Assembly: GCA_050633305.1 (NCBI GenBank)
Contig: JBOEGF010000027.1
Location: 95,403 to 159,402, forward strand
DNA from: Nannocystales bacterium
GTDB lineage: Bacteria > Myxococcota_A > Polyangia > Nannocystales > Nannocystaceae
Length of the DNA: 64,000 nucleotides
Reading direction: 5' to 3'
This document shows, in pieces, positions 5,525-55,346 of the stretch. Positions within the stretch are counted from its first letter, which is position 1; every line of letters starts with the position of its first letter. A program made the translations under genes and the position numbers. Under the pieces are notes generated by a model that saw only the letters and a list, made by a program, of their open reading frames with translations, was not told the origin of the DNA and ran no database searches.

Positions 5525-5607
5525 TCCGTGGAGCAGGACTCGAACCTGCACGCGCCGAAGCGCCGTGGTTTTACAGACCACTACCCTGCCAATCGGGTAT
5601 CCCACGG
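5525..5607 (-). tRNA. tRNA-Tyr(GTA), atypical: C1-G72, A8, long variable arm
   Basis: Reverse complement folds CCGTGGG/TCCACGG acceptor, ACCC/GGGT D stem, GTGGT-CTGTAAA-ACCAC anticodon arm, GCGC-TTCG-GCGC variable arm, GCAGG-TTCGAGT-CCTGC T arm, discriminator A. Confidence 0.85.
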
Positions 5608-5612
5608 GTGTG

Positions 5613-5694
5613 CGGAGGGTGAGGGAGTCGAACCCCCAGGCCGTTTTGGCCCACCGCTTTCAAGGCGGCTTGGCGTGCCCATGCCGAACCCTCC
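5613..5694 (-). tRNA. tRNA-Ser(TGA), atypical D arm
   Basis: GGAGGGT/ACCCTCC acceptor, GCCGC-CTTGAAA-GCGGT anticodon arm, GGCC-AAAAC-GGCC variable arm, GGGGG-TTCGACT-CCCTC T arm, discriminator G. Confidence 0.75.
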
Positions 5695-5696
5695 AT

Positions 5697-5781
5697 CGGA
5701 AGATGAGGGAGTCGAACCCCCGCTGATTTTCACCAGACCGACGCTTTCCAAGCGAGTGCCTTACCGCTCGGCCAATCTTCC
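5697..5781 (-). tRNA. tRNA-Ser(GGA)
   Basis: GGAAGAT/ATCTTCC acceptor, GCCGAGCGGTAAGGC D arm, loop TTGGAAA, CTGGT-GAAA-ATCAG variable arm, T arm, discriminator G; top two anticodon-stem pairs mismatched. Confidence 0.8.
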
Positions 5782-5795
5782 AGTTGCTCACAAAG

Positions 5796-5880
5796 CGGAG
5801 GGGGCGGGATTCGAACCCGCGCTAACGATCGCTAGACCTCGGCGTAGCAGGCCGGCACCTTTCCACTCGGTCACCCCTCC
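5796..5880 (-). tRNA. tRNA-Ser(GCT)
   Basis: GGAGGGG/CCCCTCC acceptor, ACCGAGTGGAAAGGT D arm, loop CTGCTAC, CTAGC-GATC-GTTAG variable arm, GCGGG-TTCGAAT-CCCGC T arm, discriminator G. Confidence 0.85.
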
Positions 5881-5983
5881 AGGTTGTCTCCGCACCCAGA
5901 CAGACGCGGCTGCCAGCTGGGCGTCACGCTGAGCCACAGCGACACGACACGGCACGGCACGGGGGCAGCACGACTGCGATGCG

Positions 5984-6094
5984 CTATCGAGAGGCTCGAC
6001 TGCCCACCGCAGACGCGGAATACGACGGACTCGACTGCACATCGGCGATCGGGGTCGGGAGTCGTACGGCGTTGCGTTGCGCAGGAGCGTTCAT
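5984..6094 (-). CDS. Putative 36-aa Ser-rich leader peptide of the tRNA array (not in ORF track)
   Basis: ATG 6094 to TAG 5984: MNAPAQRNAVRLPTPIADVQSSPSYSASAVGSRASR; lies between candidate promoter and first tRNA. Confidence 0.4.
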   Translation of the reverse strand: MNAPAQRNAVRLPTPIADVQSSPSYSASAVGSRASR

Positions 6095-6106: not shown

Positions 6107-6134
6107 AACCTAGCGCCCGGAGGAGGACCGTCAA
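6107..6134 (-). promoter_or_regulatory. Candidate sigma70-type promoter for the leader/tRNA array
   Basis: TTGACG (6134-6129)-N16-TAGGTT (6112-6107) followed by GC-rich GACGCGG, resembling stable-RNA promoters. Confidence 0.5.
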
Positions 6135-55268: not shown

Positions 55269-55340
55269 GGCCCCATCGTTCAGCGGTTAGGACGCGAGGT
55301 TTTCATCCTTGAAACCAGGGTTCGATTCCCTGTGGGGTCA
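55269..55340 (+). tRNA. tRNA-Glu(TTC)
   Basis: GGCCCCA/TGGGGTC acceptor, CGAGG-TTTTCAT-CCTTG anticodon arm, CAGGG-TTCGATT-CCCTG T arm; CCA not encoded. Confidence 0.95.
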
Positions 55341-55346
55341 CTTTTT

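Follow-up and report, generated by a model that had tools for sequence, protein, structure and literature searches.

Introduction

In ribosome-mediated leader-peptide attenuation, a promoter is followed by a short ORF with cognate control codons, and the regulated genes lie downstream (PMC1183508). The trp, his, pheA and pheM-pheST systems are examples. The closest described tRNA systems are of three kinds. Extra bacterial tRNA arrays have long been called cryptic, and the one worked-out case, the trn operon (L-array) of Anabaena, is reported as a 26-gene plasmid operon (PMC8421152) under a protein repressor, TrcR (PMC10272220). A tRNA-Tyr that combines C1-G72 with a long variable arm has already been published for CPR bacteria, where it is paired with an archaeal-type TyrRS (PMC5370408). 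Finally, the tRNA-Tyr of phage T5 is reported to offset the tRNA-targeting PtuAB defence of retron Eco7 (PMC11555353).

Here we describe a cluster of four spare tRNA genes, ending in an unusual tRNA-Tyr, in a 64,000-nt stretch of DNA from a member of the Nannocystaceae (the whole of this stretch is called the window). Our main finding, drawn from sequence comparison, is a family-wide set of spare tRNA clusters with codon-matched leaders in large myxobacteria. As in the attenuators, a promoter precedes a short ORF enriched in cognate codons, but here the putatively regulated genes are tRNAs, one leader covers several amino acids of a multi-tRNA cluster, and neither a U-tract terminator nor Rho was found. 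The L-array shares with these clusters its supernumerary, divergent tRNAs without CCA, its patchy distribution, short-variable-arm tRNA-Leu and A8 variants, and the presence of RtcB ligases. It differs in that its tRNA-Tyr has G1-C72 and in being one long array that covers most amino acids, whereas the window has four genes and the longest array among relatives has 23 genes of five types. The clusters described here are small and chromosomal, are limited to 1-5 amino-acid types, and have individual codon-matched leaders. The CPR tRNA-Tyr is likewise a bacterial one with C1-G72, A73, GUA and a long variable arm; the CPR examples among the matches listed keep U8, however, whereas the window gene has A8 and a 4-bp D stem and is a spare in a genome that also has a normal tRNA-Tyr and a single bacterial TyrRS. 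The phage gene is similar in being an extra, sequence-divergent tRNA-Tyr that serves as a remedy for tRNA depletion, but it uses a strong promoter, while the genes described here are host-encoded and apparently feedback-controlled.

The locus points to a direct, codon-specific feedback in which the speed of decoding of a tRNA gene's own codons would control that gene, so that the purpose of spare tRNAs becomes testable codon by codon. In these bacteria, the leaders would also mark out the tRNAs at risk (Ser, Tyr, Pro, Leu, Arg, Gln, His and Trp), and they may reveal a new link between ribosome stalling and RNA output in bacteria without Rho. In addition, the locus offers a one-residue test of how C1-G72 comes to be accepted by a bacterial TyrRS, a matter of relevance to the orthogonality rule on which genetic code expansion draws.

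Results and Discussion

The unusual tRNA-Tyr gene

The spare tRNA-Tyr(GUA) occupies 5525..5607 of the minus strand, and has C1-G72, A8, a 4-bp D stem, a long variable arm and A73. On that strand C1 is at 5607, A8 at 5600, the anticodon GUA at 5574-5572, G72 at 5526 and A73 at 5525; a UUCG loop closes the stem of the variable arm, and no CCA is encoded. We infer from the pairing that the 5′ end lies at 5607. The initial annotation had singled out C1-G72, A73, the GTA anticodon, the UUCG-capped variable stem and A8, all of which are borne out by the letters of the window. Its description of C1-G72 joined to a bacterial variable arm as atypical also holds: the housekeeping tRNA-Tyr of the same genome, inside a Thr-Tyr-Gly-Thr operon, has G1-C72 and U8, and C1-G72 is thus not the normal tRNA-Tyr identity of the clade. 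Compared with a canonical bacterial tRNA-Tyr, the window gene retains GUA, A73 and the long variable arm and lacks G1-C72 and U8. Its acceptor branch is 7/5, as in all 21 tRNA-Tyr copies compared, which sets these tRNAs apart from the allo-tRNA / selC* type as defined by an 8/4 or 9/3 branch (PMC7609411).

ARAGORN calls the gene as tRNA-Tyr, and its Rfam score (34.9 bits) is the lowest among the four tRNA matches in the window. The minimum-energy fold is a cloverleaf (z −2.64; an equally good fold arose in 3 of 200 shuffles). The ARAGORN drawing, which places a U at position 8 and treats A8 as a bulge, is ruled out by covariation among 21 homologues. A8 and the 4-bp D stem are taken to be real because the 10-25 pair covaries (GC 18, AU 1, UA 1, GU 1), position 9 is variable (C 11, U 5, G 4, A 1), and A occupies position 8 in 20 homologues, with C in the other. 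The whole Ser-Ser-Ser-Tyr cluster is also covered by contigs of two other public runs, in which its flanks are unrelated to those of the window; within the tRNA-Tyr, 5599 (position 9) is the one difference listed. A third public run, possibly the source sample, is identical over 5563-5946. Since the contigs of other runs carry the unusual features, these are not sequencing errors, and an error at position 1 or 72, which the annotation had raised against itself, is countered by the agreement of the two-run contigs at both positions.

The window locus resembles a small operon

The cluster comprises four adjacent genes on the minus strand in the order Ser(GCU), Ser(GGA), Ser(UGA), Tyr(GUA). The first, tRNA-Ser(GCU) (5795..5880), has A37-C38 where the housekeeping copy has A37-A38; the second is tRNA-Ser(GGA) (5696..5782); and tRNA-Ser(UGA) (5612..5694) has a divergent D arm. 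Each of the four anticodons is also represented by a housekeeping tRNA in the host genome (11.0 Mb, about 66% GC, 92% complete).

Upstream on the same strand is a leader ORF of 36 codons (P0001, 5984..6094), with its stop 106 nt ahead of the first tRNA. Seven Ser codons and one Tyr codon (TAT, 6022-6020) fall within the last 24 codons of this ORF, a cognate-codon enrichment of p = 0.065, which is above 0.05. The leader ATG is separated by 12 nt from the −10 element of a sigma70-like promoter at 6107..6134 of the minus strand (−35 TTGACG, 6134-6129; 16 nt; −10 TAGGTT, 6112-6107). A generic promoter/terminator scan returned nothing at the locus, but it scores against the E. coli consensus, from which this promoter is distant. 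In a predicted hairpin at 5967..6018 (minus strand), a candidate switch element, the last leader codons and the stop pair with the spacer, although the fold is not better than those of shuffles (z +0.9 for the window leader). A Pfam search of the ORFs flanking the cluster gave no match except one short-chain dehydrogenase. Judged from these elements and their conservation (below), the locus reads as a small operon of promoter, leader ORF and four spare tRNA genes. The initial annotation, which treated the tRNA-Tyr alone, stands only in part; it missed the upstream promoter and the codon-matched leader, which explain the locus better.

Leader codons follow tRNA content across the family

In an unbiased ORF scan, 42 accessory clusters were compared with 3000 random windows. 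A cognate-codon-enriched upstream ORF was found for 31 of the 42 clusters at p<0.05, and for 22 at p<0.01, p-values that are overstated because the genomes are related. When tRNA sets were permuted among clusters, the observed score was reached in none of 10000 trials. In the control set, p<0.05 is reached by 3 of the 38 other tRNA units in the host genome, one of which, the Lys-Asn pair on contig C10, has the same layout. Among the 11 clusters that were missed, one is truncated by its contig, and looser rules on first start and distance bring out a leader-like ORF in six. One of the 31 matches, in genome G069, is spurious because the cluster comes after a protein gene, without a leader. No convincing leader precedes the Arg-Arg and Gly spares of the host genome.

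Codon usage was compared in 37 leaders, hand-picked from 44 units for cognate content (the units left out are G049, G069, G073, a housekeeping control, and the Arg, Gly and Lys-Asn units of the host genome). Per last 24 codons, the means for leaders with and without the matching tRNA, which are inflated by the picking, are 2.2 vs 0 for Tyr, 7.4 vs 1.5 for Ser, 8.7 vs 1.6 for Leu, 5.7 vs 1.2 for Pro and 3.6 vs 2.1 for Arg. Codon sets track the clusters as Ser/Tyr, Pro/Leu/Tyr or Pro/Gln/His combinations. The leaders also favor particular synonymous codons, with TAT making up 55 of 73 Tyr codons (14% genome-wide) and CTA 26 of 139 Leu codons (2% genome-wide).

Two further results are independent of the hand-picking. 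The first is a natural swap within the genus: in G003 and G005, homologous clusters end in tRNA-Trp, and the leader has SW where that of the window has SY. The second is the promoter motif TTGAC-N17/18-TA, which precedes 33 of the 35 leaders with enough sequence and occurs in only 18 of 20000 random windows; housekeeping units that bear the motif have it at a distance of 39-123 nt from the tRNA, and no ORF intervenes. These comparisons show, at the level of sequence, leader codons that match the tRNA content of their clusters across a family, within a conserved anatomy.

A stalling model and its output step

We favor, with a probability of roughly 65%, a reading in which codon-matched leaders control the spare tRNA genes through ribosome stalling, and the C1-G72 tRNA-Tyr is charged by its own host. 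While housekeeping tRNA is sufficient, the ribosome would traverse the leader and little spare tRNA would be made. If tRNA-Ser or tRNA-Tyr were cut, uncharged or under-modified, the ribosome would stall on the Ser/Tyr codons of the leader, the fate of the transcript would change, and the spares would be released. These would differ from the housekeeping copies at surfaces that nucleases or modifying enzymes may contact, namely the 1-72 pair, position 8 and positions 37-38, and could escape what had hit the normal copy because the surfaces read by such enzymes differ. The altered 1-72 pairs, position 8 and anticodon loops would suit either nuclease escape or modification independence, and do not tell the two apart.

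The step from stalling to read-through would involve neither a Rho-dependent nor a U-tract terminator. No U-tract was found beside the leader stops (a run of four T occurs in only 2 of 37 spacers), and no C-rich spacer among the 37 leaders. Rho was not found in any of the 72 family genomes by a search that was positive in 8 of 14 controls. Rho-dependent attenuation is rejected because Rho was not found and the spacers are not C-rich. Pairing between leader and spacer is predicted for many leaders, without a shared structure. Coupling via U-less termination, or via ribosome-gated processing or decay, is possible.

A broader form of the proposal, which we advance tentatively as possible rather than probable, is that this Rho-less myxobacterial family has a modular tRNA back-up: each leader would list the codons of its own cluster and act through a stall-coupled switch that needs neither Rho nor a U-tract, and a TyrRS with Lys152 (below) would charge both G1-C72 and C1-G72 tRNA-Tyr, giving two tyrosine identities that toxins would not hit together.

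A literature search, made over full texts mostly outside the subscription journals and judged from titles and abstracts, returned no description of leader-controlled tRNA genes.

Conservation of the C1-G72 tRNA-Tyr and alternative readings

The tRNA-Tyr type is present in 35 of the 72 genomes of Nannocystaceae, with C1-G72 in 33 and U1-A72 in two, and in one of the seven genomes of the host's own genus. A pattern search matched 18 family genomes, 17 of them truly; further carriers came from a covariance model built on 21 copies, for which 20 of the new top matches were fetched and one proved to be a housekeeping gene. The 54 unique family copies comprise 52 with C1-G72 and two with U1-A72. The constancy of G72-A73 is partly built into the search pattern, but is seen in the model-found copies too. 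In the fold, 98% of the alignment cells of paired positions are paired, compensatory changes occur in 18 of 25 pairs, and every stem shows covariation, the 4-bp D stem among them. Some copies are solitary; others share arrays with tRNA genes for Ser, or for Pro, Leu and Arg.

The high copy number, with up to seven in tandem within one genome, is one reason to ask whether the tRNA is used in decoding at all. Leader control might be real and the odd tRNA-Tyr serve as a decoy for tRNA-targeting toxins, or as an extra-ribosomal tyrosine donor. The variability of the 54 copies is in keeping with such a role: positions 37-38 are AA in 26, AC in 18, CA in six and otherwise in four, C33 replaces U33 in four, A73 is kept in 49 and lost in five, and U8 is absent (A8 in 53, C8 in one). 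A sponge function has also been raised for the Anabaena array (PMC8421152). Nevertheless, the copies conserve the GUA anticodon, C32, the T loop and all four stems, and the leader codons match the anticodons, as feedback on decoding would predict. The same Anabaena report gives 23 of 26 array tRNAs as charged in vivo, and beside the arrays described here no transferase or other conserved protein gene is evident among the neighbors listed. On balance we regard a non-decoding tRNA-Tyr as unlikely.

The leaders might instead sense the loss of a tRNA modification (queuosine, m1G37, t6A/i6A37 or s4U8), with spares that need fewer modifications. Modification enzymes require particular tRNA motifs. 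The strong preference for TAT in the leaders would fit, as would the presence of G37 in only 17 of 41 spare tRNA-Pro compared with all three housekeeping tRNA-Pro of the host genome, and A8 excludes s4U8. This reading is made distinctly improbable by the normal anticodon loop of the window tRNA-Tyr and by the housekeeping tRNA-Arg(CCG), which also has A37; moreover, a rare wobble codon would likewise sharpen a sensor of tRNA shortage.

Patchy presence, the low Rfam score and degenerate copies in some arrays would agree with a mobile tRNA array that survives as a passive or decaying remnant, in which the leader-like ORFs arose by chance. Such a remnant is very unlikely, and the sequences largely refute it: pairing is maintained by compensatory change, the promoter motif recurs, the codon match survives the permutation control, and the tRNA block is kept in other runs within unrelated flanks.

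Outside the family, the pattern matched 3 of 396 phylum genomes, none of the matches being a tRNA-Tyr by its sequence, although this pattern is insensitive and found only 17 of the 35 carriers in the family. No homologue was found in phage and plasmid collections, and a 19-base tRNA-Tyr pattern had no match in viral contigs. A contig-wide scan gave at least 119 matches, mostly CPR-type genes; among the matches listed, those of the same tRNA type are in records of Myxococcota or Deltaproteobacteria.

Two arrays in relatives are of separate note. The longest, in G007 (L195:70-2498), is a tandem of 23 genes (seven Tyr, nine Leu, five Pro, one Arg and one Ser) that reaches the contig end and lies behind a leader rich in Leu, Pro, Tyr and Arg codons. 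In G069 (L247:2939-3119), a tRNA with a Pro-like body (C1-G72, A73) and a GCU anticodon stands beside the spare tRNA-Tyr, and the gene directly before these tRNAs is, as we take it from its sequence motifs, 2′-5′ RNA ligase-like.

TyrRS and the possible charging of the C1-G72 tRNA-Tyr

That a second, archaeal-type TyrRS charges the odd tRNA as a natural orthogonal pair, as in CPR bacteria, is the least credible reading: C1-G72 with A73 is given as the archaeal tRNA-Tyr identity set (PMC9976931), the host genome is only 92% complete, and the carrier G069 does have a second TyrRS, but PF00579, which recovers all archaeal controls, gives just two proteins in the host genome (one bacterial TyrRS with an S4 domain and one TrpRS), a one-contig carrier with five tRNA-Tyr copies has one TyrRS and two TrpRSs, and the second enzyme of G069 scores as bacterial-type. 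An archaeal/eukaryal-type TyrRS was found neither in the host genome nor in the five carriers scanned with PF00579, four of which have a single TyrRS. The initial annotation had offered as options that the tRNA is poorly charged by a standard bacterial TyrRS, needs a second or a relaxed TyrRS, or has a non-decoding role, and that it might be naturally orthogonal. The second enzyme was looked for and is not seen in the host genome, the relaxed one is plausible from a substitution described below, and the tRNA-Tyr is probably not an orthogonal tRNA.

Lys160 of the host TyrRS aligns with Glu152 of the B. stearothermophilus enzyme, a residue that presumably contacts base 72. Glu152 is reported to act as an antideterminant that guards against non-cognate tRNAs (PMC9976931). 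At this position Lys occurs in each of the 50 family TyrRSs that were examined, from among 70 family genomes with a TyrRS match. In parsed enzymes of the same type from outside the family, it is Asp or Glu in 12 of 13 and Ala in one; for the other bacterial type, with 13 enzymes parsed, the corresponding column is ambiguous and has Ser, Asn and Lys among its residues. Since family genomes without the spare tRNA-Tyr have Lys152 too, it is one lineage event and not co-evolution, and at best a permissive background for the charging of C1-G72. Three Inquilinus-type genomes pair a C1-G72, C8 tRNA-Tyr with an Asp152 enzyme, and Lys152 is for that reason perhaps not necessary for such a tRNA.

Bacterial-type TyrRSs that are blind to the 1-72 pair are reported in human mitochondria and the Plasmodium apicoplast (PMC4394434, PMC6310243). 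The host enzyme would resemble these in tolerating either pair, but it belongs to a free-living bacterium, and its tolerance is predicted from Lys152. With this analogy, the replacement of Glu152 by Lys may let the single host TyrRS charge the C1-G72 tRNA-Tyr, which at home would then not be orthogonal.

The Inquilinus-type tRNA-Tyr (L049:1290-1550; also L064 and L085) has an encoded CCA, and upstream of it are a tRNA-like 5′ half and an ORF of 14 codons, one of them for Tyr. By our own parse, the tRNA-Phe of the Anabaena trn operon (L023) has C1-G72, and its tRNAs for His, Met and Glu have A8; the array tRNA-Phe is reported as migrating oddly (PMC8421152).

Other spare tRNAs and tRNA-like elements of the host genome

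Further divergent spare tRNAs occur elsewhere in the host genome (G000) in small clusters: Pro-Gln-His, Arg-Arg, Leu-Leu, Lys-Asn and Gly. The Pro-Gln-His cluster (L264, G000:C13:26362-26660) lies behind a leader rich in Gln, Pro and His codons; its tRNA-Pro has A1-U72 and A8, and its tRNA-His has G8 and apparently lacks G-1. A DNA homologue of this cluster is found in only one of 71 relatives, G001, where it has a similar leader. The L265 entry (G000:C47:18510-19107) holds two tRNA-Leu, which follow a Leu-rich leader and have variable regions of 7 nt and non-G37 loops, and two tRNA-Arg with G32, one of them also with G33, which have no clear Arg-rich leader. The spare tRNA-Gly(GCC) (L266, G000:C65:19689-19762) has C1-G72 and G73 in place of G1-C72 and U73, and no leader was found for it. 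The Lys(CUU)-Asn(GUU) pair (L267, G000:C10:853100-853417) is preceded by a promoter and by a leader of 31 codons, three of them for Lys and one for Asn; its tRNA-Asn has U73.

Other single genes include a tRNA-Leu with an AAG anticodon (G000:C76:3-87), the A34 of which is uncommon among bacteria, and an unusual tRNA assigned to Asn(AUU) before a Glu-Lys pair (G000:C32:152651-152730). The window also contains an ordinary tRNA-Glu(UUC) at 55269-55341, with a near-identical second copy on C32.

The host genome has at least four RtcB RNA ligase genes (on C18, C20 and C13), one of which is split or frameshifted (C13:15281-16491), a number consistent with pressure from RNA damage. Finally, a region at G000:C18:127800-128750 consists of repeated, permuted tRNA-like modules (T arm, closed acceptor hairpin, D arm) with weak Rfam tRNA matches, which we presume to resemble bacterial YrlA-type Y RNAs.
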